Shown here: positions 7,541 to 25,749 of the stretch, in pieces | How the letters are laid out: each line of letters opens with the position of its first letter | How positions within the stretch are numbered: the first letter of the stretch is position 1 | Assembly: GCA_035455045.1 (NCBI GenBank) | Contig: DATIFW010000156.1 | Coordinates: forward strand, 1-37,822 | DNA from: Thermoanaerobaculia bacterium | GTDB taxonomy: Bacteria; Acidobacteriota; Thermoanaerobaculia; UBA5066 | Length of the DNA stretch: 37,822 bases | Direction of reading: 5' to 3' | Program-made: the position numbers and the translations under genes | The notes under the pieces: generated by a model | What the model was told of the DNA's origin: nothing | Database searches by the model: none | The model's input: only the letters and a program-made list of their open reading frames with translations

Positions 7541-10309
<2,769 letters not shown>

Positions 10310-10960: not shown

Positions 10961-12208
10961 GTGGAGCGATTCACCGGTCTGATCGGTCTGACGGTCGTGC
11001 TCGCCGTGGCGCTCGCGCTGTCGAAGAACCGGCGGGCGATCCGCTGGCGCACCGTCGGCTGGGCATTCGCCCTCCAGATGGCCTTCGGCCTTCTCGTCCT
11101 TTACTGGGAGCGCGGCAAGCAGGCGCTGGAGTCGTTCTCCAACGGCGTTTCGCGCGCCATCGCGTTCGCCGACCAGGGCTCGGGCTTCCTCTTCGGATGG
11201 CTCGCGGGGCCGATGGAACCCCTGGGCGAGAAGACGGGCATGCCCCTCCGGGGCTTCATCTTCGCGTTCAAGGTGCTCCCGATCATCATCTTCATCTGCG
11301 CGTTCTTCTCCATCCTCTACCACTTCGGCATCATCCAGGTGATCGTGAAGGCGATGGCGTGGGGGATGCAGAAGACGATGAAGGTCTCGGGCGCCGAAGC
11401 GCTGTGCGTGGCGGCGAACGTCTTCATCGGCCAGACGGAGGCGCCCGTCCTGATCGCGCCCTACATCGCGACGATGACGACGTCCGAGCTCCTCACGATG
11501 ATGACGGGCGGCATGGCGCACGTCTCGGGCGCGGTCATGCTCGCCTACGTGACGATGGGGGCGCCGCTGAAGTACCTCATCACGGCTTCCGTGATGGCCG
11601 CCCCCGGCACGTTCCTCATCGCGAAGATCCTCTGGCCCGAGACCGAGACGCCCACCACGATGGGAACCGTGAAGATGCAGGTCGAGAAGACGAGCGCGAA
11701 CTTCATCGACGCGGCGGCGAGCGGCGCCTCGCAAGGCATGATGCTCGTCCTCAACATCTCTGCGATGCTCATCGCCTTCGTGGCGCTCATCGCGATGCTG
11801 AACGGGTTCCTCGGGTGGGTCGGAAACCTCTGGGGAAACCCGGCCTTCTCGCTCCAGACGATCTTCGGGTGGGTCCTCGGGCCGCTCGCCTGGAGCCTCG
11901 GGGCTCCGAAGCAGGACATGGCGACCGTCGGCAATCTCATCGCGAACAAGACGGTCATCAACGAGTTCTTCGCCTTCTCCATGATGAAGGACGTCGTCGG
12001 CTCGCTGTCGGAGAAGGGGAAGGTCATCGCGACCTTCGCCCTGTGCGGCTTCGCGAACTTCTCGTCGATCGGCATCCAGATCGGCGGGATCGGCGGCCTC
12101 GCGCCGTCGCGCAAGTCCGACCTCGCGCGGCTCGGCTTCCGCGCGCTCCTCGCCGGGTCGCTCGTGAGCTTCATGACGGCGGCGATCGCCGGCATCCTGA
12201 TGGGCTAA
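10961..12208 (+). CDS. nupC: NupC/CNT-family nucleoside:cation symporter
   Basis: 415 aa polytopic membrane protein with the CNT signature regions (GQTEAPVLIAPY.., GFANFSSIGIQIGGIG). GGAGG lies upstream of GTG 10961. Confidence 0.9.
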   Translation: MERFTGLIGLTVVLAVALALSKNRRAIRWRTVGWAFALQMAFGLLVLYWERGKQALESFSNGVSRAIAFADQGSGFLFGWLAGPMEPLGEKTGMPLRGFIFAFKVLPIIIFICAFFSILYHFGIIQVIVKAMAWGMQKTMKVSGAEALCVAANVFIGQTEAPVLIAPYIATMTTSELLTMMTGGMAHVSGAVMLAYVTMGAPLKYLITASVMAAPGTFLIAKILWPETETPTTMGTVKMQVEKTSANFIDAAASGASQGMMLVLNISAMLIAFVALIAMLNGFLGWVGNLWGNPAFSLQTIFGWVLGPLAWSLGAPKQDMATVGNLIANKTVINEFFAFSMMKDVVGSLSEKGKVIATFALCGFANFSSIGIQIGGIGGLAPSRKSDLARLGFRALLAGSLVSFMTAAIAGILMG

Positions 12209-12219
12209 GGAGGAACGAG

Positions 12220-13113
12220 ATGGATTCCAGGCTCTCGGCCGCCGCGGAGTGGCTGCGCGGGCGGCTGCCGCACCCGCCGCTCGTGGGCGTCATCCTGGGC
12301 TCCGGCCTCGGCGATTTCGCCGACGGCGTGGACGAGCGCGTCACGATCCCGTACGGCGACATCCCGGGCTTTCCGGCCGCGGCCGTGATCGGGCACTCGG
12401 GAACGCTCGTGGCGGGCACGGTGCGCGGCGTCCCGACCGTCGTTCTCTCGGGACGCGTCCATTTCTACGAAGGCCACCCCATGCCGGCCGTCGTCTTCCC
12501 GGCGCGCGTGCTCGGTCTCCTCGGCTGCCGGACGGTCATCGTGACGAACGCCGCGGGCGGCATCGACAAGTCCTTCAAGTCAGGCAATCTCATGCTCATC
12601 GAGGACCACATCAACCTGTTCGGCACGAATCCTCTCGTGGGTGCGAACGACGAGGATCTCGGGCCGCGATTCCCGGACATGTCGGATGCCTACCGCAGGG
12701 ACCTCCGTTCGCTCGCCCTCGCCGTCGCGAAACGGCAGCGGATCCCGTTGAAGCACGGCGTCTATGTCGGCGTCCACGGCCCCTCGTACGAGACGCCCGC
12801 CGAAATCCGGGCCTTCCGCGCCCTGGGCGCGCACGCGGTCGGAATGTCGACGGTGCCCGAAGTCATCGCGCTGAACCAGATGGGCGTCGGCGTCCTCGGC
12901 ATCTCCTGCATCACGAACATGGCCGCCGGCGTGCTGAAGCAGAAGCTCGACCACCGGGAAGTCCTCGAGACGACACAGCGCGTGAAAGGCGATTTTGTCC
13001 GCCTTCTCACTTTTCTCGTCCAGGCGCTCGGCACCGGCCGTTCGGGCGCGACGGAAGACGCGTTTCAGCCGGTCCCCCGCCCCGCCGGGAGGAAAAGGGC
13101 GAAGAAGAAATGA
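12220..13113 (+). CDS. punA: purine nucleoside phosphorylase (trimeric PNP/PunA type)
   Basis: VILGSGLG, IPGFP..GHSGTLVAG, GRVHFYEG, GPSYETPAE, GMSTVPEV. AAGGAGGA Shine-Dalgarno. The ORF listed from 11197 is read-through across nupC. Confidence 0.9.
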   Translation: MDSRLSAAAEWLRGRLPHPPLVGVILGSGLGDFADGVDERVTIPYGDIPGFPAAAVIGHSGTLVAGTVRGVPTVVLSGRVHFYEGHPMPAVVFPARVLGLLGCRTVIVTNAAGGIDKSFKSGNLMLIEDHINLFGTNPLVGANDEDLGPRFPDMSDAYRRDLRSLALAVAKRQRIPLKHGVYVGVHGPSYETPAEIRAFRALGAHAVGMSTVPEVIALNQMGVGVLGISCITNMAAGVLKQKLDHREVLETTQRVKGDFVRLLTFLVQALGTGRSGATEDAFQPVPRPAGRKRAKKK

Positions 13114-13529
13114 GCGCGGTCCGGCCCCTCACGGCTGAGGAGGAAGAGCGCCTCGTCGACGCGGCGCGCAAGGCGCGCGAGAACGCCTCGGCCCCGTACT
13201 CGCGCTTCAAGGTCGGAGCCGCGCTGCTCGCCGAGGACGGGACGATCTTCGGCGGCTGCAACGTCGAGGCGGCGTCGTACGGCCTGACCGTGTGCGGCGA
13301 GCGGACGGCCGTGTTCAAGGCGATCTCGGAGGGAGCGCGGAAGTTTCGCGCCGTCGCCGTCGTGACGGACGCCGACCCGCCCGCGTCGCCCTGCGGCGCG
13401 TGCCGGCAGGTCCTCTGGGACCAGTGCCGCGACATCGACGTCATCCTCGCGACGCCCACGCGCGTCGTGAGCCGCATGCGGCTCTCGACGCTCCTCCCTC
13501 TGGCCTTCGAGTTCGGGGGACCGAGGTGA
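13110..13529 (+). CDS. cdd: cytidine deaminase
   Basis: CGERTAVFKA (CAE-type zinc site) and PCGACRQVL. The ATG overlaps the punA stop (ATGA). Confidence 0.9.
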   Translation: MSAVRPLTAEEEERLVDAARKARENASAPYSRFKVGAALLAEDGTIFGGCNVEAASYGLTVCGERTAVFKAISEGARKFRAVAVVTDADPPASPCGACRQVLWDQCRDIDVILATPTRVVSRMRLSTLLPLAFEFGGPR

Positions 13530-13701
13530 GGAATTCCTCGGATATGCGGCGGCTGCTGATGCAGCCGCGAGGACCGAATTCCTTCTTATATGCGGCGGCT
13601 GCTGATGCAGCCGCCGATAGCTGGAAATCTTCTTCCCGAATGGCCGATGTCAAGGGCGCGCTTCGCGCGCCGCGCAGCGGTCGGAGACCCTTGACATCGG
13701 C
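13530..13701. repeat. block of palindromic units: a 27-bp direct repeat (13542-13568 and 13588-13614), each copy containing a GC hairpin, plus a 14-bp perfect inverted repeat (13643-13656 / 13688-13701) enclosing a second palindrome
   Basis: ATATGCGGCGGCTGCTGATGCAGCCGC occurs twice. The stems are GCGGCTGC-TGAT-GCAGCCGC (8 bp) and CGGCGGCTGC-TGAT-GCAGCCGCCG (10 bp). GCCGATGTCAAGGG...CCCTTGACATCGGC is the 14-bp inverted repeat. The inner palindrome is GGCGCGC-TTC-GCGCGCC. Confidence 0.75.
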
Positions 13702-15148
13702 AATTCGGGGAGTACTTCTGGCACTTCTTTTCGCGAGCGCGGCGCAGCAGGCCGCGGCTGCGCAGCCTGCGCCTTCTAAGACATCTTCCTCTTCCCGTTC
13801 ATCTCGTTCTCCTATCGATACCCTCGTGACCGCCGCGCACGTCCTGACGATGGACGGATCGGACCGCGTTTTTTCCCCCGGTGCCGTCGCCGTCAAGGGC
13901 GGCAGGATCGTCGCCGTCGGCACGCCGTCGGAGCTGTCGGCTCGTTATTCTCCTAAGCAGAAGATTTCCCGTCCCCGCTCGGCGGTGCTTCCCGGGCTCG
14001 TCAACACGCACACGCACGCCGCGATGAGCCTGTTCCGCGGCATCGCGGACGACCTCCCGCTCATGGAATGGCTGACGAAGTTCATCTTCCCGGCGGAGGC
14101 GAAGAACGTCTCGCCCGCCTTCGTGAAGGCCGGGACGACGCTCGCGTGCCTCGAGATGATCCGCGGCGGCACGACGACGTTCGCGGACATGTACTACTTC
14201 GAGTCCGACGTGGCCGAAGCCGTGAATTCGTGCGGCCTGCGCGCCATCCTGGGCGAGACCTGGCTGGACTTTCCGGTGCCGGACCACAAGGACCTCGACG
14301 AGTCGATCCAGGTGACCCGGGCGTTCCTCGAGAAGTGGAAGGGCCACCCGCGCGTCGTCGCGGCCGTCGCGCCGCACGCGCCGTACACGAACGCGAAGGA
14401 GTCCATCCAGGCCGCCAAGGCGCTCGCGGAGGAGTTCGGAGCCCCGCTCCTCATCCACCTCTCCGAGACGAAGGACGAGCAGAAGCAGATCGCGGAGAAG
14501 TACGGGACGACGCCGGCGAAGTGGCTCGACGCGATCGGTTTCCTCGGCCCGAACGTCCTCGTGGCGCACTGCGTCTGGTGCGACGCGGACGACTTCCGGC
14601 TCCTCGCCGAGCGGAAGGTCGGCGTCGCCCACAACCCCGAGTCGAACATGAAGCTCGCCTCGGGCATCCTGGACGTCGTGGGCGCGCGCAAGGCCGGCGT
14701 CGACGTGGGCCTCGGGACGGACGGCGTCGCGGGCTCGAACAACGACCACGACATGTGGGAAGCGATGGACTTCGCCGGCAAGCTGGCGAAGGTCTCGACG
14801 ATGGATCCGACGGCCCTGCCGGCGAAGACTCTCGTGCGAATGGCGACGATCGAGGGCGCTCGGGCGATGAAGATGGACGATCGCATCGGCTCGCTCGAGC
14901 CGGGCAAGCGCGCGGACCTCGTGGCGGTCGACCTTTCGGGGGCGCGCACGCAGCCCCTCTGGGACGTCTTCTCGACGCTCGTCTACGCGGTCAAGGAGAG
15001 CGACGTGTCCCTGACGATGGTCGAAGGCCGTGTCCTGTGGGACGGCCGGAGCGTACGGACCGTCGACGCGCCGAAGACCCTGCGCGAGGCGGAAGCGTGG
15101 CGGAAGAAGATCGCGGCGTCGCTCTCGACGCCCGCCGCCGCGAAATGA
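13640..15148 (+). CDS. amidohydrolase of the MtaD/ATZ-TRZ (nucleoside/nucleobase deaminase-like) family with an N-terminal signal-peptide-like extension
   Basis: VNTHTHAAMSLFRG (HxH), HLSETKDE, HCVW, GLGTDG. The start is ambiguous: ATG 13544, ATG 13640 or TTG 13691 (the last gives MTSAIRGVLLALLFASAAQQAAAAQ). The stop overlaps the deoA start (ATGA). Confidence 0.8.
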   Translation: MADVKGALRAPRSGRRPLTSAIRGVLLALLFASAAQQAAAAQPAPSKTSSSSRSSRSPIDTLVTAAHVLTMDGSDRVFSPGAVAVKGGRIVAVGTPSELSARYSPKQKISRPRSAVLPGLVNTHTHAAMSLFRGIADDLPLMEWLTKFIFPAEAKNVSPAFVKAGTTLACLEMIRGGTTTFADMYYFESDVAEAVNSCGLRAILGETWLDFPVPDHKDLDESIQVTRAFLEKWKGHPRVVAAVAPHAPYTNAKESIQAAKALAEEFGAPLLIHLSETKDEQKQIAEKYGTTPAKWLDAIGFLGPNVLVAHCVWCDADDFRLLAERKVGVAHNPESNMKLASGILDVVGARKAGVDVGLGTDGVAGSNNDHDMWEAMDFAGKLAKVSTMDPTALPAKTLVRMATIEGARAMKMDDRIGSLEPGKRADLVAVDLSGARTQPLWDVFSTLVYAVKESDVSLTMVEGRVLWDGRSVRTVDAPKTLREAEAWRKKIAASLSTPAAAK

Positions 15149-16455
15149 GCCTCTTCGTCCGCACGATCGTCAAGAAACGCGACGGAGGCGAGCTGTCGGA
15201 AGGCGAGATCGGCGCCTTCGTCACGGGGGTCACGGACGGCACGATCCCCGACGAGCAGGCGGCCGCGTTCCTGATGGCGGTCTGCTGCCGGGGAATGACG
15301 ACGGCCGAGTCGGCCGCCTTGACGTTCGCGATGATGAAGTCGGGAGAGACCTGGGATCTGACGCGGCACGGCTTCGTCGCCGACAAGCATTCGACCGGCG
15401 GCGTGGGCGACAAGACCACGCTCGTCCTCGCGCCGCTCCTCGCGGCGGTCGGCGTCAAGGCCGGCATGATGTCGGGGCGCGGCCTCGGCCACACGGGCGG
15501 CACGCTCGACAAGCTCGAGGCGATCCCCGGGTTCCGCACGGCGCTTCCGAAAGCGGATTTCGACCGCCTCCTCGACACCGTCGGGTGCGCGCTCATCGGG
15601 CAGACCGACTCGATCGCCCCGGCCGACCGCCGCCTCTACGCGCTCCGCGACGTCACCGGAACCGTCGAATCGATTCCTCTCATCGCGGCGTCGATCCTCT
15701 CCAAGAAGCTCGCGACCGGAGCGTCCGCCGTGGCGTTCGACGTGAAGACCGGAAACGGCGCCTTCATGGCCGACCCGAAGGACGCGGAGCAGCTCGGGAA
15801 GGCTCTCGTCGAGACGACGCGCGCGACGGGCCGCAAGGCCTCGGGGTACCTCACGGCCATGGATCGGCCGCTCGGCGAGGCCGTGGGGAACGCGAACGAA
15901 GTAGAGGAGTCGATCCGCATGCTCGGCGGCGAGGGGCCGGCCGACCTCCGCGAGAACACGCTTCTCCTCGCTGCAGACCTCGTCCTCGCCGCGGGTCTCG
16001 AGACGAGCGCGAAGGAGGCGCGGCGTCGGCTCAACTCCGCCCTCTCAGACGGCCGGGCCCTGGAGGTCTTCCGGAAGCTCATCGCGGCGCAAGGTGGGGA
16101 CGCGGGCGTCTGCGACGACCCGAAGCGGCTCCCGCGGCCCGTTTCGCGCAAGGACGTCCCGGCACCCGCCTCCGGAGTGGTCGCGCGCATCGCGACGAGG
16201 GAGATCGGCCTCCTCGCGATCGAGCTCGGCTGCGGGCGGGCGAAGAAAGACGACGTCATCGACCCGGCCTCCGGCTTTCGCGTGAAGAAGAAGCCGGGGG
16301 ACGCCGTGGAGAAAGGCGAGCCGCTCCTCGTCGTCGAGCTCGGCCCGACCGCGAAGCCGAACGCGACGTTCGACGACCGTCTCGCAGGCTGTTTCACGAT
16401 CGCTCCCGCCGGGACGAGGGTCGAATCGCTGCCGTTCGTCGTCGGGAGACTCTGA
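15145..16455 (+). CDS. deoA: thymidine/pyrimidine-nucleoside phosphorylase
   Basis: KHSTGGVGDKTTL and SGRGLGHTGGTLDKLEAIPGF. 436 aa. Confidence 0.9.
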   Translation: MSLFVRTIVKKRDGGELSEGEIGAFVTGVTDGTIPDEQAAAFLMAVCCRGMTTAESAALTFAMMKSGETWDLTRHGFVADKHSTGGVGDKTTLVLAPLLAAVGVKAGMMSGRGLGHTGGTLDKLEAIPGFRTALPKADFDRLLDTVGCALIGQTDSIAPADRRLYALRDVTGTVESIPLIAASILSKKLATGASAVAFDVKTGNGAFMADPKDAEQLGKALVETTRATGRKASGYLTAMDRPLGEAVGNANEVEESIRMLGGEGPADLRENTLLLAADLVLAAGLETSAKEARRRLNSALSDGRALEVFRKLIAAQGGDAGVCDDPKRLPRPVSRKDVPAPASGVVARIATREIGLLAIELGCGRAKKDDVIDPASGFRVKKKPGDAVEKGEPLLVVELGPTAKPNATFDDRLAGCFTIAPAGTRVESLPFVVGRL

Positions 16456-16573: not shown

Positions 16574-17212
16574 CTAGGCGTGCGTCCGCGTCGAGCCGTC
16601 GGGTGAGGCGCTTGCGAAGCGGAGAAGGACGCTTCCGAGCCGGATTTCGTCGCCGTCCAAGAGAGTCACGGGTGACGTAAGACGTTCCTTGCCGTGGAAC
16701 GTCCCGTTCTTGCTGCCGAGGTCCTCGAGCGTCACGCGTTCGCCCTGGACGTCGATGCGCGCGTGCCGCCGGGAGACCGAGCCGTCGACGACGAGGACGT
16801 CCGCGGAAGCATCCCGTCCGAGGACCGTGGCTCCCTCACGCAGCCCGACCTCGCGGCCCGCCCAAAGGAGGCGGTGCCGGGCGAAAGACGGGGCAGCTTC
16901 GGCCGCGGGAACACCCTCGCCCGTGAACGCGTAGCCGAAGCCGTAGACGGTTCGGATCCACGTCGCGTGGCGAGCGTCGTCTCCGAGCGCCGCCCTCAAG
17001 TCGTTCACGAGGCTCGCGAGGTTCGACTCCGAGACGAACGTCTTCGGCCAAAGAGTATCCATGAGTTCCGACTTGGAGAGGGCGCGGGGGCGATTTGCGA
17101 GGAGCACGCCGAGGAGGTCGAAGACGCGGGGCGCGACCGGCACGCTCTCGCCGTTCCTGAGGATCTGACGAGTTTCGTCGTCGAACGTGAACTCCCCGAA
17201 GGCGGCTCGCAT
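16574..17212 (-). CDS. transcriptional regulator: N-terminal OmpR/PhoB-type winged helix + C-terminal FHA domain (no receiver domain)
   Basis: Starts at MRAAFGEFTFDDETRQILRNGESVPVAPRVFDLLGVLL..LSKSELMDTLWP..NLASLVNDLR..IRTVYGFGYAF (Trans_reg_C-like). FHA: TVLGRD...VSRRHARI...LEDLGSKNGTF. The listed ORF extends to 17359, but the paralogue aligns from Met at 17212. Confidence 0.8.
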   Translation of the reverse strand: MRAAFGEFTFDDETRQILRNGESVPVAPRVFDLLGVLLANRPRALSKSELMDTLWPKTFVSESNLASLVNDLRAALGDDARHATWIRTVYGFGYAFTGEGVPAAEAAPSFARHRLLWAGREVGLREGATVLGRDASADVLVVDGSVSRRHARIDVQGERVTLEDLGSKNGTFHGKERLTSPVTLLDGDEIRLGSVLLRFASASPDGSTRTHA

Positions 17213-17306
17213 GGCCTTTTCGTGATTATCCGCGTGACCGTGAAAACCAGAAGTTCGCCAGGAGTTCTCCAAGATCGGCGAAGAGCCGCGCCCCAACTTC
17301 CGGGGC
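17213..17306. promoter_or_regulatory. divergent promoter/operator region of regulator/HExxH pair 1
   Basis: 94-bp gap between divergent start codons. It contains GATTATC (GATAATC on the minus strand) 12 nt from the regulator ATG, and three CGTGA direct repeats (17221, 17233, 17239). Confidence 0.4.
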
Positions 17307-17780
17307 ATGGCGCGAATTCCGAAGTTTCTCCCCGCGGTGACCATCCTGGCGACGCTCACCGCGCGTGCGGATGGAGGTCTCGGAGTCGCCTTCGGCGACG
17401 CCGCAGGGATCGCGTCCCGAAAGCTCGAGGATGAGAGATGCCTGCTCGTGCTCTCCGACTTCAGCGACGCGTCGGGCCGCCCGCTCGCGGAGCGGCTTCA
17501 TGACACGGGTCTCACGGCTCGCGAGTTCTTCGAGCGGCTCGAATTTCGCAACGGCCGTCATGAGTCGACGTGCCAGCGGAGCCGTGTGGATGCGTTCGTG
17601 CACATCGGACAGCGCACGGTCTTCGTGTGCCCGGGTGGCTGCTTCGACTTCGGACGCCGGGACGTCGGCCACGCCTCGAACGTCCTCATCCACGAGATGC
17701 TCCACACGCTAGGACTGGGAGAAAACCCGCCCACGAGCCTCGGGATCACGAGCCGGGTGGCGGAGCGCTGCGGTCGGTGA
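17307..17780 (+). CDS. small secreted putative zinc metallopeptidase (HExxHxxGxxE, mini-metzincin/snapalysin-like)
   Basis: Signal peptide MARIPKFLPAVTILATLTARA. NVLIHEMLHTLGLGENPPTS motif. Four Cys conserved with the paralogue at 18650-19174. Confidence 0.65.
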   Translation: MARIPKFLPAVTILATLTARADGGLGVAFGDAAGIASRKLEDERCLLVLSDFSDASGRPLAERLHDTGLTAREFFERLEFRNGRHESTCQRSRVDAFVHIGQRTVFVCPGGCFDFGRRDVGHASNVLIHEMLHTLGLGENPPTSLGITSRVAERCGR

Positions 17781-17830
17781 CGCGGTAAACGGTTCGCGTC
17801 CGACCCGTTGTCGCCGAGTCTTCGAGGAAG

Positions 17831-18475
17831 TCAGGGTACCGTTCGCGTCGAGACGGTTCCCGACGCGGCGTGAAAGACGAGCTCCACGGACCCGACGCGA
17901 AGCTCGTCGCCGTCGCGCAGCGGGACGCGGCCTTCGATTCGATCCATGCCTGAGTACGTTCCGTTCTTGCTCCCGAGGTCCTCCAGCTCGGCGGTCTCGC
18001 CCTTGACGAGGATGCGCGCGTGGCGACGTGAGACGGAGGGGTCTCCGAGCCAGATGTCGACTTCCGGATCCCGGCCCAGGACGTTTTCGCCCTCCGAAAG
18101 ATAGAGGACGTTCAGGCCCCAGACGAGCCAGAGGCGGACTCCCGAGCGGCCCCGGTCAGGTGCTCGCTCGGCGACGACGTCCGCCGCAAAGGAATAGCCG
18201 AAGCCGTGGTGGGTCTTGAGGAACGCCGGGTGCTTCGCGTCGTCTCCGATGGCCGACCGAACGTCGTTCACGAGGCTCGTCAGATTCGACTCCGTGACGA
18301 GCACGTCCGGCCAGATGGCGGCGATGAGCTCCTCGCGGGAAAGCGCTCGCGGACGCTCCTTCAAAAGCAGTTCGAGGAGGTCGAACGCCTTGGGCGTGAG
18401 GTGGACCGGGTCGGGCCCGCGCAGAAGCAACCGAGAATCCGGGTCGAAGGTCACCTCGGCGAATCGGAAACGCAT
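17831..18475 (-). CDS. transcriptional regulator: OmpR/PhoB-type winged helix + FHA domain (paralogue of 16574-17212)
   Basis: MRFRFAEVTFDPDSRLLLRG..PKAFDLLELLL..LSREELIAAIWP..NLTSLVNDVR..HGFGYSF. FHA: NVLGRD..VSRRHARI..LEDLGSKNGTY. Roughly half the residues are identical to the first regulator by eye. Confidence 0.85.
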   Translation of the reverse strand: MRFRFAEVTFDPDSRLLLRGPDPVHLTPKAFDLLELLLKERPRALSREELIAAIWPDVLVTESNLTSLVNDVRSAIGDDAKHPAFLKTHHGFGYSFAADVVAERAPDRGRSGVRLWLVWGLNVLYLSEGENVLGRDPEVDIWLGDPSVSRRHARILVKGETAELEDLGSKNGTYSGMDRIEGRVPLRDGDELRVGSVELVFHAASGTVSTRTVP

Positions 18476-18649
18476 GGATCGTCCCGATTATCAGGGAATC
18501 CGGAGCTCAAACGCCGAGGCGTGACCTCCCCTGATCAGAGTGACGCGGGAATTCCGTCTGTAACTCCCGAAGGCAGATTTTTTCCATGAATCCGCGAGGA
18601 CTCGGCGGGGCGGCGGACGCCACCTTCCTGACACCAGGGAGGGCACAAC
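18476..18649. promoter_or_regulatory. divergent promoter/operator region of regulator/HExxH pair 2
   Basis: 174-bp gap. GATTATC lies 11 nt from the regulator ATG, the same position as in pair 1. Also GTGAC repeats at 18521 and 18540, and AGGGAGGG Shine-Dalgarno before ATG 18650. Confidence 0.4.
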
Positions 18650-19174
18650 ATGACCGCCGGACGGGCCGTCCGCCTAGCGTTAGCTGCCTCTTGCTCGCTT
18701 CTGGCGCTTCCGACTCCCTCCACTTTCGCGGATCCCGACCGGCCGCTTCACGTGCGTCCCTCGGGCGGGCCGCTGGAGACGTACGTCTCCGGCGCCGCCC
18801 GGAACGCGATCACGAAGCTGGAAAGACCGCAGTGCCTCGCGGTGCTCTCCGATTTCCGCGACGGACAGGGCCGTCTCCTGAAGGAGAACCTCGAGTCCCG
18901 CCGGATGACCGCACCCGAGTTCTTCGTGAAGCTGACGTTCGTGGACGGAAGCCGCGTGGCGCTCTGCGGGCGCCCGGAGGTGGCCGCCGGCACGAACCCG
19001 GGACAATCCGTGATCGCCGTGTGCCCGGAGACGTTCGCTCGCGTCAGCCGAAAGGAGCCCGGCATCGCCGCCAACGTCCTCATCCACGAGATGCTTCACG
19101 CCCTGGGGCTCGGCGAGGATCCGCCGACGAGCGAGGAGATCAACCGGCAGGTCGGGAAACGCTGCGGCTTCTGA
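18650..19174 (+). CDS. small secreted putative zinc metallopeptidase (HExxHxxGxxE), paralogue of 17307-17780
   Basis: Signal peptide MTAGRAVRLALAASCSLLALP. NVLIHEMLHALGLGEDPPTS. Conserved blocks C(L)xVLSDF, VCP and RCG. The overlapping ORF 18586-19224 in another frame is Arg/Pro-rich noise. Confidence 0.7.
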   Translation: MTAGRAVRLALAASCSLLALPTPSTFADPDRPLHVRPSGGPLETYVSGAARNAITKLERPQCLAVLSDFRDGQGRLLKENLESRRMTAPEFFVKLTFVDGSRVALCGRPEVAAGTNPGQSVIAVCPETFARVSRKEPGIAANVLIHEMLHALGLGEDPPTSEEINRQVGKRCGF

Positions 19175-19742
19175 CGGCGCCGGCCGCCTCCAGCGCCGTG
19201 CCCTCCCGCCGGATGCGGCGGTAGGCGACGACGAGAGCCGCCGTGAAGACGACTCCGAAAATCACGAGCAGCCGGATGAGCGCCGGATCCGACGACATGG
19301 GCGGCGCGGTCCCCGCGCGCCACTCGCGGTACGTGCCGAGGACGAGCGTGCGGTCCTTTTGCAGGAACACCCAGCCCGTCGCGAACAGCAGACACGCGGC
19401 GATGAGGAGCCGGTTCAGGCCCACGCGGCCCTCGCGCACGAGCGCGACACCCGCCGCCAGGCCCGCGACGTTCGACGCGAGGTAGAGCGTCATGAACATG
19501 GGAATGAAAACCGGGTACGCGAGGACCGAGTCCTCGTGCCACCACATGTGCGAGGTCTCGAAGCCGAAGTGCCGCACGAGAAGCTCGATCGGGAGCCAGC
19601 TCGCGAAGACGCCGAAGAAGAGGAGGTCGCGGACGACCGTGCGCCAGACGTGTTCGCTCTCGCCGGTGGCGAGCTGGGCGCGCGCGGCGTCGGCGTGGAG
19701 CCCTCCGAGGGCGAACGCGACCGGGATGTCGATCTGGACCAT
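19140..19742 (-). CDS. integral membrane protein of unknown function (about 5 predicted TM segments), last gene of the kinase-FGE operon
   Basis: Hydrophobic segments (LLFFGVFASWLPIELLV, VFIPMFMTLYLASNVAGLAAGVALV, LLIAACLLFATGWVFL, LIRLLVIFGVVFTAALVVAY). Starts 12 nt after the TonB-receptor stop. No family recognised. Confidence 0.6.
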   Translation of the reverse strand: MVQIDIPVAFALGGLHADAARAQLATGESEHVWRTVVRDLLFFGVFASWLPIELLVRHFGFETSHMWWHEDSVLAYPVFIPMFMTLYLASNVAGLAAGVALVREGRVGLNRLLIAACLLFATGWVFLQKDRTLVLGTYREWRAGTAPPMSSDPALIRLLVIFGVVFTAALVVAYRRIRREGTALEAAGAVRSRSVSRPAG

Positions 19743-19754: not shown

Positions 19755-21797
19755 CTAGAAGTGGAAGCGCAGCTCGCCCGTGACGCGGCGGCGCAGGATG
19801 TCGCCGAAGACGTGCTGCTGGACGCGCGCGTCGGCCAGGTTCACGGCCCGGACGGCGACGGCGAGACCGTTCCGGAACGTCCAGCCGAGAGCCGCGTTCC
19901 AGAGCGTGAACGGGGCGGTCGTGCCGACGTACGGCTGGACGTCCGTCCAGAACGCAGACGCCGTGTAGTTCACGGAGACCGACCCGGAAAAGGGGCCGGC
20001 GGCGACGCCGAGCCCCGCGTTGACGCGGTGCCGCGCCGGCAGGTTCACGGGGATCGTCGCCGCGCCCTGCTCGCTCACGTCGGGGTCCGCCTGCCACGAG
20101 TAGTTCGCGAAGGCCGTGAGGGCGCGAGTGAGCTTCGCGTCGGCCGAGAACTCGAAGCCGCGGTCCACGATCCGCCCGAGGTTCCGGTAGCTGAACGTCT
20201 TCGGGAGGCCGATCTGGTCGAGGGCGGACGGCGGCAGCGGCCAGCCCGGCGGCGGGTCGGCCGACGTGTAGGACTCGATGGGCACGAAGAAGATGCGATC
20301 GCGCGAGATGTTGTAGTACGCCGAGGCCGTGACGGTGACGCGCCCGGCGAGCGTCCCGGTGTAACCGATCTCGAACGCGTTCATCGTCTCGGCGTCGAGG
20401 GAGCTCGAGCCCGTCGCGAGGATCGGGAAGACGTACGGGCCCGTCGGAAGCGTCGCGAAGGCCGAACTCGGGAAGTAGAGGAAATCCTCGACGAGCGACG
20501 GAGCGATGAAGGCCCGGTTCCAGCTCAGCCGGAAAGTGTGGTCCTTGTGCGGCTCGAAGATGAGGCCCGTGCGCGGCGAGACAGCCCCGCCGTACGTGTC
20601 CGACCAGTCGTAACGCGCGCCGATCCTCAGGCGCAGCGTCTCGGCGAGGAAGATCTCGTCCTCCGCGAAGACGGCGAGGTCGGTGCGCGCGTGGACGTCG
20701 GGCACGAGGCTCAGGTCGAAGTGGCTGTAACGCGCGCTCGCGCCCCACGTGACGAGGTTCTTCTCGCCGAAGAGGTGACGGTCGCCCGCCTCGGCCGCGA
20801 CGGCCTGGTTCTTCATCGTGACGACGTCGGGCGTCAGGAAGCCGACGTACTTCGCGTCGTGCAGCGTCGCCTCGCCGGCGGCGTGGAAGTCGCCCTTGCG
20901 GTACCCGGCCGAGACGTGGCCCTGGTAGAGGTCCTTGCTGTCGAAAGGCCCGAGGCCCGTGAGCATGGCGCCGTCGCTCGACGCGAAGCCCGCGCCGAAC
21001 TTCCACTTGCCCGCGTCGGGCCGGTCGAGGTCGAGGCGCAGGTCGAGGCGGTACTGGTGAGTGCCCGTGTTTTCGTACGGCGGCAGGGGCGTGCCGTCGG
21101 GCAGCGTCGTGGGGCGCTCCCAGGCGTCCTGCGTGAAGTACGAACCGCTGACCTTGTACGACGCGGCGCCCGAGGTGCCCGCGTGGATCACGCCGGCCTC
21201 GCGCGTGCCGAGCGTTCCGCCGCCGACCTTGACGGACGTTCCGAGCATCTCGGCCGGGTCCTTCGTGAGGATGTTCACGACGCCGCCGAACGCGTTTGGC
21301 CCCCACATGGCGGAGTCGGGCCCGCGGACGACCTCGACCTGCTTGACCTCGTCGAAGTTGATGGGCAGGAGGTCCCACAGGACCATTCCGAAGTAGTCCT
21401 GGTAGATCGTGCGCCCGTCGAGGAGCGCGAGCGTCGCGCGCGCGTTGCGGCCCGTCGCGAGGCGTGGCGTGAGGTTGACGTCGCGCGCGGACGTCTGCGC
21501 GACGTTGAGTCCGGGCACCGGGCGCAGGAGATCGCCGTAGCCCTCGCCCGCGGACGCCGCGATCTCGGGCGCCGAGACGACCGTGACCGCGACCGGCGCG
21601 TCGCGGAGCTCCTCGGCGGTCTTGCTCGCGGTCACGACGACCGTCTCGCCGTACGTGCGTTCGGGCTTCTCGTCCGCGGCCTCGCCGGAAGCGGCGGGCG
21701 GCGGGGTCGCGGGCGTCGGCGTCGGCGCCGGCTGCTGCGCGAGAGCGCTGCCCGCGAGAGAGCCGGCGAGAAGGGGAGCGAGGAGTCGCCGCGTCAC
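19755..21797 (-). CDS. TonB-dependent outer-membrane receptor
   Basis: GTG 21797. Signal peptide VTRRLLAPLLAGSLAGSALAQQ. Plug motifs ETVVVTASK and VEVVRGPDSAMWGPNAFGGVVNILTK. Beta-barrel with terminal ..ELRFHF. The listed 1100-aa ORF is upstream read-through. Confidence 0.9.
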   Translation of the reverse strand: MTRRLLAPLLAGSLAGSALAQQPAPTPTPATPPPAASGEAADEKPERTYGETVVVTASKTAEELRDAPVAVTVVSAPEIAASAGEGYGDLLRPVPGLNVAQTSARDVNLTPRLATGRNARATLALLDGRTIYQDYFGMVLWDLLPINFDEVKQVEVVRGPDSAMWGPNAFGGVVNILTKDPAEMLGTSVKVGGGTLGTREAGVIHAGTSGAASYKVSGSYFTQDAWERPTTLPDGTPLPPYENTGTHQYRLDLRLDLDRPDAGKWKFGAGFASSDGAMLTGLGPFDSKDLYQGHVSAGYRKGDFHAAGEATLHDAKYVGFLTPDVVTMKNQAVAAEAGDRHLFGEKNLVTWGASARYSHFDLSLVPDVHARTDLAVFAEDEIFLAETLRLRIGARYDWSDTYGGAVSPRTGLIFEPHKDHTFRLSWNRAFIAPSLVEDFLYFPSSAFATLPTGPYVFPILATGSSSLDAETMNAFEIGYTGTLAGRVTVTASAYYNISRDRIFFVPIESYTSADPPPGWPLPPSALDQIGLPKTFSYRNLGRIVDRGFEFSADAKLTRALTAFANYSWQADPDVSEQGAATIPVNLPARHRVNAGLGVAAGPFSGSVSVNYTASAFWTDVQPYVGTTAPFTLWNAALGWTFRNGLAVAVRAVNLADARVQQHVFGDILRRRVTGELRFHF

Positions 21798-23071
21798 GCG
21801 TCCACCGGGTCCGGGGAGGCGCCGGGGCCGGTGCGCCGGAGCGACTCCGGCAGGAACGTCTGTTTGTAACCGGGTGGAAGCTTCGAGAGCTCCTCGGTGA
21901 GGGCGATGTGGAGGGACTCGGACGCGCGCGAGAGGAATGCGCCGCCCGAGAGACGCTGGAGGACGTCGTAGACGAAGCGGAGCACGAGGAGCACGATCTC
22001 CTCGCTGAACCCGGCGAGTCCCAGCTTGCCCGAGAGCTCCACGCCGAGGAGCTTCATCGTCTCCGGCCCGAGGATGTCCCGCATGACGAGGCGCGGGAGC
22101 CGCGCGAGATCGGCGGGGCGCAGGTACTTGAGCGGCAGCTCGCGCGGGACGTGCTCTCCCAGGAGCTTCTCGACGAACTCGACGAGGGCGCGCGTGATCT
22201 CGACGCCGTCCTCGGTCCGTCCGGCCTGCCGCGCGCGGATCGCGTGATAGAGCATCTCGGCGCGGGCGAAACGGGACGGGCCGCCGTCGCCGGGTTCGGG
22301 CTCGGGCAGGAGGCTGCGGTCGACGCCGAGGACGAAGCCGACCACGTTCCAGCAGTGGATGAACGCCTCGGCCTGGTCGGGCGTGAAGGCGGCGCCCATC
22401 GTCTTCATGCCGCGGAGGACGACGTACGCGAACGTCTGAAGCGTGTAGGCCATGTCCTCCTGGCAGATGGGATGCCCCCACGCCGGGTTCCAGCGCGCCT
22501 CTTCGTAGACCTTGCCCATGTCGTGGCCGGCGCCCGTCGCGGTCGCGAGGATGAGGTGGCGCACGGCAGCGTGCAGGAGTCGCACCTTCTGGACGGAGAG
22601 AATGCCCTTGGCGCCGGGCGCGAGGCCGCCCGGGAGCATCGCGTCGCGCACCATCTGAGACGTCTCGAGGATGCGCAGGCCGGGGCGGTCCTTGAGGTAC
22701 GTGGTCAGCCCGAGGACGTGGATGCCGTTCCGCATCACGTAGCACTCGGGCAGGCTCGCGCAGACGAGCAGCACCGTCGCGCCGAAGCCGTTGTCGTAGA
22801 AGAATTTCTGGCCGGCCTTCACGAGAGCGGGGTCGGCCCACGGCGGCGGGTCGGCGCTCTTGACCGCGAAGTCGTGGACGGGTGAGGGGAGGTTCGCGTG
22901 CGTGAAGTCGCCTTCGAACGTAAGGCCGAAGAGGAAGTCGTTCATTCTTTTCAGACCCGTGCGGCCGCCACCCGCGTCCTCGTAGAGCGCGGCGACGGCC
23001 GCGTCGGCGAGCGGGTCGCCGACGAGACGCATCGGGGCGAGCGCCGCATCGGTCCACGGCGTGAAGGTCAT
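21794..23071 (-). CDS. MpaB/Lcp-like oxygenase family protein (DUF2236-type)
   Basis: 425 aa from ATG 23071. The all-helical sequence has family-like blocks (LPECYVMRNGIHVL, VRLLHAAVRH, QEDMAYTLQTFAYVVLRGM). Assigned by recollection of the family profile, so moderate confidence. Confidence 0.65.
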   Translation of the reverse strand: MTFTPWTDAALAPMRLVGDPLADAAVAALYEDAGGGRTGLKRMNDFLFGLTFEGDFTHANLPSPVHDFAVKSADPPPWADPALVKAGQKFFYDNGFGATVLLVCASLPECYVMRNGIHVLGLTTYLKDRPGLRILETSQMVRDAMLPGGLAPGAKGILSVQKVRLLHAAVRHLILATATGAGHDMGKVYEEARWNPAWGHPICQEDMAYTLQTFAYVVLRGMKTMGAAFTPDQAEAFIHCWNVVGFVLGVDRSLLPEPEPGDGGPSRFARAEMLYHAIRARQAGRTEDGVEITRALVEFVEKLLGEHVPRELPLKYLRPADLARLPRLVMRDILGPETMKLLGVELSGKLGLAGFSEEIVLLVLRFVYDVLQRLSGGAFLSRASESLHIALTEELSKLPPGYKQTFLPESLRRTGPGASPDPVDA

Positions 23072-25494
23072 CTGCCGTCTCCCTCGGTGCGCGGCGGCGT
23101 GAACGCCAGCCGGAAGCTGATCGCCGGGTTCAGGTAGAAGGCCGGGATCAGGTAGCGGAACGCCGCACGGCTCATGTGGCTGAACTCCGTCGAGCCCGCG
23201 AGTTCGGCCGCGCCGCCGCGGATGACGCTCGAGACCATGGCGGTCTCGCCGTGGCCCTGCGTCACGAGAGTGGCCGTCCAGTCGCGGGCGTTTCCCGCCA
23301 TGCCGCGCACGCCGTACACGGAGACGTCGGTCGGGTACGAGTCGACTGGCAGCGGCCGCGGGCGGCCCGGGTTGCTCTCTCCCGAGTTGCAGAAGCTCGC
23401 GTCGAAACGATCTCCCCACGGGAACGCGCGCCCGTCCACTCCGCGCGCGGCTTTCTCCCATTCGAATTCGGTCGGGAGGCGGTACTCCCGCCCGTCGCGC
23501 GCGGAGCGCCACTCGGCGTATGCGACGGCGGAGTGCCACGTGATGCTCACGCAGGGGCGGCGGGGATGCATCTCTTCGCCGAGGAGGTCCCGCGCCGGGA
23601 GCGTAAATCGCCCGTTCGCGTCCACCTCGAGATAGGTGCTCCCGCCCACGTCCTTCTTCGGGGAGTGCAGCGCGGCCTTCGCGGGGTCGGTCGCGACGAG
23701 GTCGTTCAGGAACTCGACGTACTCGCCCATCGTGACGGGATGTACGCCGATGCAGAAATCCTCGCTCTCGGCCATCTTCCCGGGCAGCCCCCAGCCCGGA
23801 AGCGCAGGGTCGCCGCCGAGGACGTACGGTCCCGCGGGCACGTGGACGAAGCCCTCGCCGATCTCGGCGGGCGTGAGCAGCCGCACGCGGCCGGCCCAGG
23901 TCCGCGAGCGCGAGATGAAGACGGGGTAGCGCGTTTCGGCGCGGCCCCGCGCGCGCAGGACGACGAGGTAGTTGCCCATCGGAAGCGGCAGGGAAGGCAG
24001 CGGCGTGCGCCCGAGGAGGCGCTCGTTCCCCGGGACGAGTCGGCGATCCTTCTCGGCGAACTCGTAGAGCCAAACCTCGGCGCCGGGCGGATCCGAATCC
24101 AGCGCGAGCGAGCCGTCGCCTTTGAGGGAGGTGGCATGGCGCCCGTCGTCGAAGGCCGCGGCGATCTGCCCGAAGTACCGCACGTTCCTCTGGTCGTGCT
24201 GCTCCTCGGCCTCGAGGAGCTGCTCGAAGAAGTAGTCGGCCATGACCGCCCGCGCCTCGGAGTGGCTCTCGTCGTGGCCAAGGGCGCCCGCGAGCGTCAT
24301 GACGAGTTTCGAGCCGGTGGTCGCGAGCTGGACGCGCGCGTCGCGCAGGCGGTCTTCGGCCGACGTGAGCGGTTTCTTCTCGTTCACACTCTGCCAGGGC
24401 TGGAAGCCGCCGCGCAGCGACTCGACTTCTCGTTCGAGGGCGGCCATCTCCTCCTTCTTCCCGCGGTAGTCTTCGAGGATCTGGCGTCCGCGAAGTGCGA
24501 GGACGCCGGCGTTCTCCTGCCGCTTGACCTTGTCGGCCTCGGCCTCGAGCCAGGCCTGGATCTCGTCCTGCAGCTCCAGGACGGACGCGTGGCGTGCGTC
24601 AGGAGACTTCGCGAGGGCCTTGAGACACGTGCGCTCGAGCGCGAGGGGGATCTCGCGCGCCGGCGTCCGCTCGCGCGGCGGCTTCGGGTTGTCGCGCAGG
24701 ACGGCCGCGAGCGTCGCGATCGGGTTCGCGCCCGAGAAGGGCCGCTCGAGCGTGAGGATCTCGTACATCATGATGCCCAGCGCCCAGACGTCGGACCGCT
24801 CATCCACCGGAGAGGACGCTGCCTGCTCGGGCGACATGTACGCAGGCGTCCCGACCATCTCGTCCACCCGCGTGTGGTCCGTGCCGGAGGCGAGGACCTT
24901 TCCGTCTCCGCGGTCGATCACCTTCGCGAGGCCCCAGTCGAGGACCTGCACCTCGCCGTGCTCGCCGAGCATGACGTTCGCGGGCTTGAGGTCGCGGTGG
25001 AGGACTCCGCGCGAATGCGCGAAGTCGATCGCCTGCGTGACCTGCAGGAGGACCTGCACGAGGCGCGTGATGGAGTACCGGGAGATCGTCTCGCGATCGC
25101 CCGCGCGCAGGCCGCCGAGCACGTCGGCGAGGGTGCGGCCGCGGACGTACCGCATCGCGCAGAAGGGAGCACGGTCGCCGACGACGAGGGCGTGCAGGGG
25201 CACGACGTTTGGGTGCTCGAGCTGGCCCAGGATGCGCATCTCGTCGAGGAAACGGGCGCGGCGGGTGGGGTCCTCGCCCTTGGCGACCTTGAGCGCGACC
25301 TCTCGCCCGAGAGAGGGATCACGCGCGAGGAACACCGCTCCCATGCCTCCCTCGGCGAGGAGCCTGACGATCTCGAAGCGGACGGCGCCCGACGTGTCCC
25401 GCGGCGCGTCCGCCGGAAGCGAGGGCGCGGCCGCGCTTTCCGGCGTCGGGGCGAAGGTTTCCTCTTCGGAGGGATCGCTGTCCTGCCGGCTCAT
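23068..25494 (-). CDS. bifunctional Ser/Thr protein kinase / formylglycine-generating-enzyme (SUMF1/FGE-sulfatase) family protein
   Basis: ATG 25494. GGMGAVFLARD, HRDLKPANVM, DWGLAK, GTPAYMSPEQ. Then a coiled-coil region, a PEGA-like segment (GAEVWLYEF..GNYLVVLRARG), and a C-terminal FGE domain (VTMGEYVEFL, YRLPTEFEWEKAARG, GNARDWT). Confidence 0.85.
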   Translation of the reverse strand: MSRQDSDPSEEETFAPTPESAAAPSLPADAPRDTSGAVRFEIVRLLAEGGMGAVFLARDPSLGREVALKVAKGEDPTRRARFLDEMRILGQLEHPNVVPLHALVVGDRAPFCAMRYVRGRTLADVLGGLRAGDRETISRYSITRLVQVLLQVTQAIDFAHSRGVLHRDLKPANVMLGEHGEVQVLDWGLAKVIDRGDGKVLASGTDHTRVDEMVGTPAYMSPEQAASSPVDERSDVWALGIMMYEILTLERPFSGANPIATLAAVLRDNPKPPRERTPAREIPLALERTCLKALAKSPDARHASVLELQDEIQAWLEAEADKVKRQENAGVLALRGRQILEDYRGKKEEMAALEREVESLRGGFQPWQSVNEKKPLTSAEDRLRDARVQLATTGSKLVMTLAGALGHDESHSEARAVMADYFFEQLLEAEEQHDQRNVRYFGQIAAAFDDGRHATSLKGDGSLALDSDPPGAEVWLYEFAEKDRRLVPGNERLLGRTPLPSLPLPMGNYLVVLRARGRAETRYPVFISRSRTWAGRVRLLTPAEIGEGFVHVPAGPYVLGGDPALPGWGLPGKMAESEDFCIGVHPVTMGEYVEFLNDLVATDPAKAALHSPKKDVGGSTYLEVDANGRFTLPARDLLGEEMHPRRPCVSITWHSAVAYAEWRSARDGREYRLPTEFEWEKAARGVDGRAFPWGDRFDASFCNSGESNPGRPRPLPVDSYPTDVSVYGVRGMAGNARDWTATLVTQGHGETAMVSSVIRGGAAELAGSTEFSHMSRAAFRYLIPAFYLNPAISFRLAFTPPRTEGDGR

Positions 25495-25749
25495 CGCAAC
25501 TCCAGCATCACGTGCCGGTCCATTCCCCTCCTCGATCGTCCCGAAGCGACGTGGACGCGCGGATCGTACCAGCCGCAGCCACCGGGTTTTTCTTCGGAAG
25601 TGCGCTGCCCCCTCGAGCGTCGTCAGGACGCCTGAGGATCGTGCTCTCTCGAATTCCGCGGTAGTGCGTCCGCTCGCGTCTTTACCTGATGCGAACGTTT
25701 CATTGCACCGGGACTCCATCCTACCCGATCCTTACTGCAGGAGAGCGTC
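25495..25749. promoter_or_regulatory. 255-bp divergent intergenic region between the kinase-FGE operon and the ten-gene redox operon
   Basis: It must carry both promoters. AGGAGAG Shine-Dalgarno lies 5 nt upstream of GTG 25750. No specific boxes called. Confidence 0.4.

Follow-up and report, generated by a model that had tools for sequence, protein, structure and literature searches.

The 37,822-nucleotide stretch of Thermoanaerobaculia DNA analysed here (contig DATIFW010000156.1; hereafter the window) contains, at positions 16574-19174, four intact genes in the order R1 (minus strand), S1 (plus strand), R2 (minus strand), and S2 (plus strand). They form two consecutive divergent pairs, each consisting of a gene for a regulator (R) with a winged helix-turn-helix (wHTH) and a forkhead-associated (FHA) domain and a gene for a small, apparently exported zincin-like protein (S). 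The pair recurs in other genomes, in many cases together with a gene for a Ser/Thr kinase (STK) that carries a transmembrane (TM) segment and a PD40 propeller, and the cassette is thus broader than a single genome, i.e. widespread in the Acidobacteriota and undescribed. On balance, we consider it probable that a PD40 receptor kinase acts through phosphothreonine (pThr) and the FHA domain of R on the divergent S promoter, and that S is a metalloprotein of zincin fold. The individual parts are familiar, the step from STK through FHA to wHTH being already known from EmbR, and S represents a large, unannotated zincin-like family.

The duplicated R-S pair and its neighbourhood in other genomes

The four genes of the two modules are as follows.

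16574-17212, minus strand: R1, 212 aa, with an N-terminal OmpR/PhoB-type winged helix, a C-terminal FHA domain, and an S-T-R-T tail
17307-17780, plus strand: S1, 157 aa, with a predicted signal peptide, four Cys, and the motif HEMLHTLGLGE
17831-18475, minus strand: R2, 214 aa, wHTH-FHA, with an S-T-R-T tail
18650-19174, plus strand: S2, 174 aa, with a predicted signal peptide, four Cys, and the motif HEMLHALGLGE

The G+C content across the window is 63-72%. The mechanical open reading frame (ORF) of R1 runs on to 17359, and the ATG at 17212 (MRAAFGEF) was preferred as its start because the homologues are all approximately 214 aa in length. The public gene call for S2 (P0002, 140 aa) begins at V35 and drops the signal peptide; the ATG at 18650, which gives the 174-aa product, was preferred because homologues of 174-177 aa align from residue 1 with 100% query coverage. 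R1 and R2 share 52% identity over their full length (E 2e-70), and S1 and S2 share 48% (E 2e-37). An earlier inspection of the letters and translations without database searches (the sequence-only reading) had described the same two consecutive units, all four ORFs of which were recovered where it had placed them, had put the identity of the paralogues at 40-50% by eye, and had taken the duplication to be old. The last point is borne out by the orthologues found at other loci (designated here by L numbers), those of R1/S1 in L019 (84 and 80% identity, respectively) and L040 (71 and 55%) and those of R2/S2 in L009 (92 and 62%), L036, L004, L008, and L001. Since R1 tracks S1 and R2 tracks S2 across genomes, the duplication is ancient, and each R has been passed on together with its S. 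At other loci, modules 1 and 2 sit apart from each other, and tandem arrangements of the types S-R-S and R-S-R are present in L027 and L029, respectively. The window is not alone in having R locally amplified: L066 (5001-6999) contains three tandem wHTH-FHA genes followed by one S-family gene, and an STK-PD40 kinase gene precedes them.

A scan of one genome per species, with profile scans on six-frame ORFs, yielded 58 loci encoding S relatives, nearly all from metagenome-assembled genomes (MAGs) of Acidobacteriota (Thermoanaerobaculia and Vicinamibacteria), together with one Gemmatimonadales MAG and one weak match in Anammoxibacter. A divergent winged-helix gene lies beside S in 35 of the 56 loci with an S match. 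In 27 of these 56 it is a wHTH-FHA gene located 60-274 bp upstream of S, and in eight the wHTH is joined to a different C-terminus, which was confirmed to be a PD40 propeller in at least four of the eight. Several other S loci have an STK-PD40 kinase gene as the divergent or downstream neighbour, and a kinase gene occurs within 3.5 kb of S in about half of the 56 loci; in L001, L004, L067, and L068, S is followed in the same orientation by the kinase gene, with gaps of 13-86 nt. All three R homologues that were sampled solely for the length of their contigs adjoin an S-family gene and an STK-PD40 kinase gene. The pairing noticed by the sequence-only reading therefore recurs widely outside this genome. 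Approximately 20 of the 56 loci have neither a wHTH nor a kinase neighbour. At the latter loci, other genes adjoin S, e.g. those for an extracytoplasmic function (ECF) sigma factor and a permease, as judged by N-terminal sequences only.

The regulator of L007 shows the wHTH-TM-PD40 organization, with a single hydrophobic segment at residues 106-125 and a wHTH domain that is 39-40% identical to those of R1 and R2. Its topology is that of the ToxR/CadC-type one-component regulators, in which a wHTH is linked through a TM segment to a periplasmic sensor; the window, in contrast, separates the sensor (STK-TM-PD40) from DNA binding (soluble R). That the PD40 sensor and the wHTH are fused in some genomes and split into STK-TM-PD40 and FHA-wHTH proteins in others suggests that the kinase and R work together.

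The gene linkage might reflect mere synteny of functionally unrelated genes, S being then a conserved hypothetical exported protein. Approximately one-third of the S loci have no recognizable R or kinase neighbour, and as the window shares its surrounding nucleoside-catabolism synteny with L001 and L004, some of the linkage could be inherited gene order. However, the divergent R-S pair is maintained amid many different neighbours and across classes (Thermoanaerobaculia, Vicinamibacteria, and the Gemmatimonadales MAG), the partner is in places exchanged for a fused wHTH-TM-PD40 regulator with S retained, the R and S paralogues co-segregate, and motifs between the two genes are conserved. This explanation is strongly disfavoured, and we regard it as very improbable.

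The wHTH-FHA regulator and the kinases of the window

R1 and R2 match the Pfam model Trans_reg_C (PF00486) with E-values of 1e-15 and 5e-17, respectively (57.6 and 62.3 bits against a cut-off of 26.2), and the full-length FHA profile with E-values of 1e-19 and 3e-18, above the curated cut-offs; their sole further Pfam match is the FHA-related Yop-YscD_cpl model. Neither a receiver (Response_reg) nor a BTAD domain was found in the Pfam scan, in agreement with the sequence-only reading, and approximately 25 residues separate the wHTH from the FHA domain. The response-regulator models of NCBIfam match R by their C-terminal effector part only and far below cut-off. The nearest PDB matches of the wHTH are the effector domains of KdpE, CovR, and PhoB. 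For the FHA domain, the best PDB sequence matches are GarA and OdhI (E 9e-12 to 4e-11), and FhaA and EmbR also align. The pThr-contact loops GR, SRRH, and SKNG are intact in the alignment with GarA, OdhI, and EmbR; residues G134, R135, S149, H152, N171, and G172 are invariant in 25 R homologues, and the pThr-binding pattern is present in 115 of 126. The family is large, with 6,050 clusters at 90% identity matching R2 at E<=1e-10, the best 120 of which are mostly of approximately 214 aa and have the identical two-domain make-up.

The closest precedent is the EmbR/PknH system of Mycobacterium tuberculosis, in which PknH phosphorylates the wHTH-FHA protein EmbR via its FHA domain and thereby enhances DNA binding (PMC6213207). 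R resembles EmbR in its N-terminal winged helix, its C-terminal FHA domain with intact pThr residues, and its linkage to a transmembrane Hanks-type kinase. It differs in the absence of a BTAD domain, in its length (~214 aa), in a wHTH of PhoB/KdpE/CovR rather than EmbR/SARP type, and in its S-T-x-T tail; furthermore, its partner kinase has a PD40 sensor, and its predicted target is a divergent gene for a small exported protein. The sequence-only reading had regarded R as a trimmed EmbR, and the EmbR/PknH precedent does apply to this extent. However, the alignment of EmbR to R is limited to the FHA domain (residues 132-207), and because, in addition, the wHTH is KdpE/CovR/PhoB-like, R is an independent fusion and not a shortened EmbR. 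In the literature searched, which concerned wHTH-FHA regulators, the occurrence of this domain pairing in Acidobacteria, the HEMLH motif, and the kinomes of acidobacteria, only EmbR/PknH was found as a precedent for the FHA-wHTH step, and no description of the S family or of the cassette was found.

Both regulators end in the S-T-x-T motif, which reads STRT in R1 (16574-16600) and in R2 (17831-17860). Within the last 22 residues, (S/T)-T-x-(S/T) is present in 80 of the 126 R homologues, against 0.009 expected per equivalent stretch elsewhere in these proteins. The tail is thus a candidate phospho-acceptor that the FHA domain might recognize in cis or in trans. In GarA and OdhI of Actinobacteria, a Thr motif in the protein's own tail is phosphorylated and then binds the protein's own FHA domain. 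These proteins provide the nearest PDB matches of the R FHA domain, and R has a conserved Thr-rich tail as well; their motif (ETTS), however, is N-terminal and their output is enzyme inhibition, whereas the motif of R is C-terminal and its output is a DNA-binding domain.

Two STK genes and one kinase remnant were recognized in the window by the sequence-only reading, and all three were found again.

~7541-10309 (start approximate), plus strand: K1, a cytoplasmic kinase domain (Pkinase, E 7e-47), one TM segment, and a periplasmic PD40/TolB-like propeller (PD40, E 1e-27)
23068-25719, minus strand: K2, STK-FGE-sulfatase
35353-36033, plus strand: kinase/PD40 remnant, with the glycine loop GAGGMGEVY followed by PD40-like sequence

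K1, with a single hydrophobic segment near residue 344, is the sole STK-TM-PD40 gene of the window. It is 40% identical over 906 aa to the kinase adjoining R in L004, and a 79%-identical orthologue is located in L040 at approximately 1.3 kb from the orthologues of R1 and S1, for which reason K1 is the best candidate for the partner kinase of R1. K2 was dropped as a module member, as it lacks PD40 and resembles the module kinases in its catalytic domain only. The segment at 35353-36033 is a degenerate STK-PD40 gene from which the catalytic core and the TM segment are missing. In L001 and L004, STK-PD40 kinase genes flank the R-S pair, and the window is without those flanking kinases.

The S family: conservation, fold, and relation to known peptidases

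S1 and S2 matched no family above the Pfam threshold and none in NCBIfam, as the sequence-only reading had anticipated in not recognizing S as a characterized family, and no PDB sequence relative was obtained in a single-sequence search and two profile searches. PADLOC gave no match for S1, S2, R1, or R2. A word-indexed search returned only 60 relatives, nearly all of them metagenomic 'hypothetical proteins' from Thermoanaerobaculia/Acidobacteriota. An exhaustive search with a family hidden Markov model (HMM) against 1.84 billion representatives, counted as clusters at 50% identity, yielded 1,677 clusters at E<=1e-3, 1,089 at E<=1e-10, and 621 at E<=1e-30. The best 150 clusters listed are all single-domain proteins of approximately 135-240 aa, mostly 160-190 aa, and look-ups of the clusters returned no functional name.

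In an alignment of 129 diverse members (S2 numbering), C62, C106, C125, H146, E147, H150, G153, P159, and C172 are invariant, so that the motif block and the four Cys singled out by the sequence-only reading are confirmed. At least 90% of the members retain E156 and the LGLGE-PP around it, and the third position is never His. The N-termini are variable and hydrophobic and have A-x-A-like ends (TARA|D in S1 and TFA|D in S2), which, together with the four invariant Cys, indicates Sec export and two disulfides. S is thus predicted to be a Sec-exported protein with two disulfides and a mature mass of approximately 14 kDa. A lipoprotein reading of S2 (AASC) was rejected, as close homologues do not keep this Cys. 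Of the two proteins, S changes more rapidly than R: when the window is compared with L009, identity is 62% for S2 and 92% for R2.

An AlphaFold2 model of S2 residues 36-174, built from the 129-sequence alignment, reached a predicted local distance difference test score (pLDDT) of 95.5 and a predicted template modelling score (pTM) of 0.91. Both in this model and in one with a pLDDT of 86, a long helix (137-151) carries HExxH at its C-terminal end; in the S2 model, the helix is followed by a Gly-turn loop bearing E156 and by a last helix ending at C172. The feature by which zincins are defined, an HExxH motif on an alpha-helix with His, Glu, and His conserved, is therefore present in S.

No close structural relative was identified, a candidate of this kind being rejected in the absence of any Foldseek match below E 0.18 in the PDB or 0.09 in BFVD. 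The first full-length S model gave matches only at E>=4. With the mature S2 model, the best PDB match was TM1509, a YbeY-like metal hydrolase (E 0.18); deuterolysin (1eb6, family M35) was found with TMq 0.56, TMt 0.46, probability 0.72, E 0.5, and a root-mean-square deviation of 6.0, and the minigluzincins selecase and jannalysin were weak matches of the S models (TM 0.35-0.44, E>1). In BFVD, SprT-like zincins were the best matches, with a lowest E of 0.09. At the sequence level, the Pfam model Aspzincin_M35 (PF14521) gave weak sub-threshold matches in 26 of 37 S members (best E 3e-5), the scores of S2 and S1 being 17.7 and 15.8 bits, respectively, against a gathering cut-off of 30. All recurrent remote signals of S are thus to zincins, i.e. 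Aspzincin_M35, deuterolysin, selecase, jannalysin, and SprT-like proteins.

The aspzincins of family M35 (deuterolysin, peptidyl-Lys metalloendopeptidase, and AsaP1) are the only family with a recurrent sequence signal to S and provide its best peptidase fold match. Like S, they are small, largely helical, disulfide-bonded, and secreted, and their third ligand follows just after the HExxH helix. S is shorter, however, with approximately 140 aa in the mature form; its third ligand is probably Glu at +6 after the Gly-turn, its Pfam scores are below cut-off, and the second aspzincin motif GTxDxxYG is absent, the segment after HExxH being xLGLGE(D/N)PP(T/S)S. S is possibly remote kin of the aspzincins and is not a member of the family. 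The minigluzincins (selecase and projannalysin of Methanocaldococcus) share with S a minimal zincin scaffold of approximately 100-140 aa, but these archaeal proteins are cytoplasmic, have neither disulfides nor a signal peptide, and position their third ligand differently.

The sequence-only reading had likened S to a miniature metzincin or snapalysin (M7), acting as a protease or toxin at the end of a linear output circuit in which R, as a minimal EmbR, would be controlled by the kinases of the window. The HExxHxxGxxE spacing and the invariant Gly do fit the zinc-binding consensus of metzincins, and S shares with snapalysin the HExxHxxGxx(D/E) spacing, an LGL core, very small size, and secretion. 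The snapalysin gene, too, is reported to be accompanied by a divergent regulator gene, there of the LysR type, whereas the regulator of S is a wHTH-FHA protein. The comparison fails at the level of the family: no Peptidase_M7 match was obtained at E<=1 for S1, S2, or the 37 family members; Peptidase_M10 matched only two of the 37 (E 0.13); and no metzincin was among the Foldseek PDB matches at E<=10 with either S model. Moreover, the third position is Glu instead of His or Asp, and there is no conserved Met after E156, from which approximately 18 residues remain (consensus NPPxSxEITxRVxxRCG), so that a Met-turn is missing. Because of these features, S is not a metzincin. Neither an immunity-like gene nor a PADLOC match was found in favour of a toxin, and R, as shown above, aligns with EmbR over the FHA domain only. 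Taken as a whole, the protease-or-toxin circuit under a minimal EmbR appears improbable.

We conclude that S is the founding member of a family of minimal zincin-fold proteins that has no annotation. As the general-base Glu of HExxH is invariant, catalysis can be argued for, and S is most probably a minimal metallopeptidase of the periplasm or the extracellular space.

A different role is suggested by CpxP and ZraP, small periplasmic proteins that are encoded divergently from, and induced by, their own signalling systems (CpxP/CpxA and ZraP/ZraS). S might likewise be a non-enzymatic periplasmic protein that assists the PD40 sensor or gives it feedback, and its HExxH...E would serve as a metal or ligand site modulating the kinase. 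It is small, predicted to be exported, divergent from a regulator gene, and often encoded by the first gene of a receptor-kinase operon; it also occurs beside fused wHTH-TM-PD40 regulators, and its faster evolution relative to R is what a co-evolving binding partner might show. S has, however, no sequence relation to CpxP or ZraP, the remote sequence and fold signals all point to peptidases, and the invariance of the HExxH Glu, both His, and the Gly-turn in 129 members is hard to explain without catalysis. We therefore regard a purely accessory S as unlikely, accessory and enzymatic roles not being mutually exclusive.

Intergenic elements and the proposed circuit

Alignment of the R-S intergenic regions across loci revealed the following elements.

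17224-17230: GATTATC element of module 1, 12 nt upstream of the R1 start, reading GATAAT on the R strand
18486-18492: GATTATC element of module 2, 11 nt upstream of the R2 start
17249-17276: direct repeats of module 1, AGAAGTTC / AGGAGTTC / CAAGATC, with an 11-bp period, between R1 and S1
18576-18604: repeats of module 2, GATTTTTTCC / GAATCCG / GGACTCG, with a period of approximately 11 bp, between R2 and S2
17290-17306, plus strand: hairpin in the S1 leader, GCCCC-AACUUCC-GGGGC, abutting the S1 start (minimum free energy, MFE, -22.9; z -2.0)
18623-18642, plus strand: hairpin in the S2 leader, CCUUCCUG-ACAC-CAGGGAGG, which would sequester the S2 Shine-Dalgarno (SD) sequence (MFE -25.3; z -2.2)

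The sequence GATTATCNG occurs just twice in the 37.8 kb (0.33 expected), both times at the identical position before the R genes, and the GATTATC element is conserved in orthologous loci; it is probably the -10 box of a nearly leaderless R transcript. The orthologous R1-S1 regions of L019 and L040 retain the repeat block of module 1. The block of module 2 aligns with L001, L004, L008, L009, L036, and L010 and can also be read as an imperfect palindrome, GAATCC-N4-GGACTC, which appears as GAATCC-N4-GGATTC in some loci. A variant form of the repeat block is present in Vicinamibacteria-type loci. The exact 17-mer of the module 2 repeats is unique in the window, where further copies of the S2 operator-like motif were chance-level matches only and revealed no extra regulon members. 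By virtue of their conservation and position, the repeat blocks are candidate binding sites for the PhoB-type wHTH. A sigma-70 promoter scan of 16.4-19.4 kb yielded nothing, terminator-like sites in it were at chance level, and repeat searches inside single intergenic regions gave short, unconvincing repeats only. Relative to L001, L004, L008, L009, and L036, the R2-S2 intergenic region has an insertion of approximately 69 nt (18497-18565), at which an imperfect 17-nt inverted repeat is located (arms 18480-18496 and 18529-18545).

The CCCC/GGGG stem of the S1 hairpin is kept in L019 and L040 with different loops. Homologous S2-type hairpins have z-scores of -3.4 (L001) and -4.5 (L008), and between these two loci the stem changes from U-A to C-G and from C-G to U-G while still fully paired. 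In many Vicinamibacteria-type loci, S is preceded by an almost invariant leader of approximately 40 nt, GCCUGGCCAGGC-GGCUCC-(variable loop)-GGAG(C/U)CGCC-N-AUG, the DNA form of which starts with GCCTGGCCAGGC. Of 68 loci, 19 contain this leader, each a single time and before no gene other than S (L024:7838-7880, L035:7856-7895, L016:7816-7860, and 16 further loci); it is not found in the window. It consists of a palindrome and a hairpin; the palindrome is paired in 98.4% of cells and the 9-bp helix in 97.7%, with one pair being G-C in 20 cases and G-U in 18 and with one compensatory pair. No Rfam match at gathering score was obtained in eight loci (124 kb) containing the 5'-untranslated region (UTR) elements. 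The leader is likely to work as RNA, although the palindrome could instead be a DNA site.

In metagenomes, the full leader element precedes signal-peptide proteins, mostly S-family HExxH proteins and twice a different HELAH protein. The 17-mer GCCTGGCCAGGCGGCTC was rejected as an S-specific metagenome marker, since only 26 of its 81 matches have an S gene recognized by the family HMM directly downstream; the remaining matches are mostly chance occurrences inside unrelated DNA, and only the element comprising hairpin, SD, and start codon is specific. In L080 (575-1300, plus strand) and L104 (~1-575, minus strand), a signal-peptide protein of 241 and 192 aa, respectively, is encoded behind the leader element and a divergent wHTH-FHA gene; both proteins carry HELAH and do not match the S-family HMM. 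The target slot beside wHTH-FHA may thus accept other HExxH proteins.

Upstream of the cassette lies a nucleoside uptake and catabolism block (10961-16455, plus strand) that encodes a CNT-type nucleoside transporter, an amidohydrolase, and thymidine phosphorylase. L001 and L004 have a syntenic block, in which genes for purine-nucleoside phosphorylase and cytidine deaminase are present as well. Downstream, a 200-aa multi-pass membrane protein (19140-19742, minus strand), for which no Pfam or PADLOC match was found, is encoded convergently with S2, the two genes sharing 35 nt at the 3' end of S2, and beyond it is a gene for a TonB-dependent receptor (19755-21800, minus strand). Encoded at 3910-4563 (minus strand) is a protein of approximately 217 aa in which two beta/gamma-crystallin domains (Pfam Crystall, E 9e-18) are accompanied by a weak signal for peptidase inhibitor I36.

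In the circuit that we consider probable, a periplasmic signal would be sensed by the PD40 propeller of the receptor kinase, which would then create pThr sites on itself or on the S-T-x-T tail of R. The FHA domain would either dock on the autophosphorylated kinase or read the protein's own pThr tail in the manner of a GarA-like or dimerizing switch, and would thereby shift the oligomeric state of R or its affinity for the repeats between R and S. R would control S, the S-kinase operon where present, and probably R itself. S, once exported, would be a small zinc hydrolase in the envelope or outside the cell and is likely to work with the PD40 sensor, e.g. by generating or trimming its ligand or by feedback, and not only as a distal output; its translation would additionally be gated by the SD-sequestering hairpin. 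A sensor-linked role of S is favoured because S accompanies PD40 sensors whether these are split from the wHTH or fused to it. The kinase-to-R-to-S circuit of the sequence-only reading survives in part: the link to a Ser/Thr kinase is strongly suggested by the gene neighbourhoods, while the specific class is STK-TM-PD40, and S may belong to the sensing apparatus and not only to the output.

Several points weigh against this circuit. No kinase gene is adjacent to either module in the window, K1 being 6.3 kb away, and an orthologue of the kinase that follows S2-type genes in other genomes was not found in the window, which offers no candidate kinase for R2. The S loci lacking a wHTH or kinase neighbour also count against it, several of them being contig ends or very divergent members. 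The likeness of S to known zincins is weak, and its predicted catalysis is drawn from the invariance of the motif; the putative operators are likewise assigned by conservation, with direct and inverted repeat readings both possible; and the high conservation of the hairpin sequences leaves little covariation. Domain make-up, sequence conservation, gene linkage, and the conserved cis elements are observed directly; every functional step, from export, zinc binding, and catalysis by S to the binding of R to the repeats, phosphosignalling from the kinase to R, and any interplay of S with PD40, is one that we infer.

A further-reaching proposal, which we consider rather unlikely, is that the R-S-kinase triad constitutes an unrecognized, widespread class of transmembrane signalling, of which the fused form also exists. 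In this class, S would be a dedicated exported mini-metalloprotease that acts on PD40 in the periplasm or makes its ligand, and the kinase would pass the signal by way of pThr and FHA to the PhoB-type winged helix. S would further be controlled by a conserved 5'-UTR RNA absent from Rfam, and it would represent a new zincin family with Glu as the third ligand on a metzincin-like Gly-turn and a disulfide replacing the Met-turn.

Acidobacteriota are among the most abundant soil bacteria and encode very many Hanks-type kinases with PD40/TolB-like sensors, which have scarcely been studied. For one large class of these kinases, the cassette suggests how the wiring may run, from a defined type of kinase through a dedicated family of FHA-wHTH transcription factors (at least 6,000 clusters) to a target gene with conserved operator-like sites. 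The S family (at least 1,000 clusters at 50% identity), which combines metzincin spacing and a putative Glu ligand with the absence of a Met-turn, bears on the question of how small a metallopeptidase can be, and the SD-sequestering leader (GCCUGGCCAGGC with GGCUCC...GGAGCC) is a candidate new cis-regulatory RNA. If the circuit holds true, signalling from Ser/Thr kinases to transcription would be as tractable in these bacteria as a two-component system.

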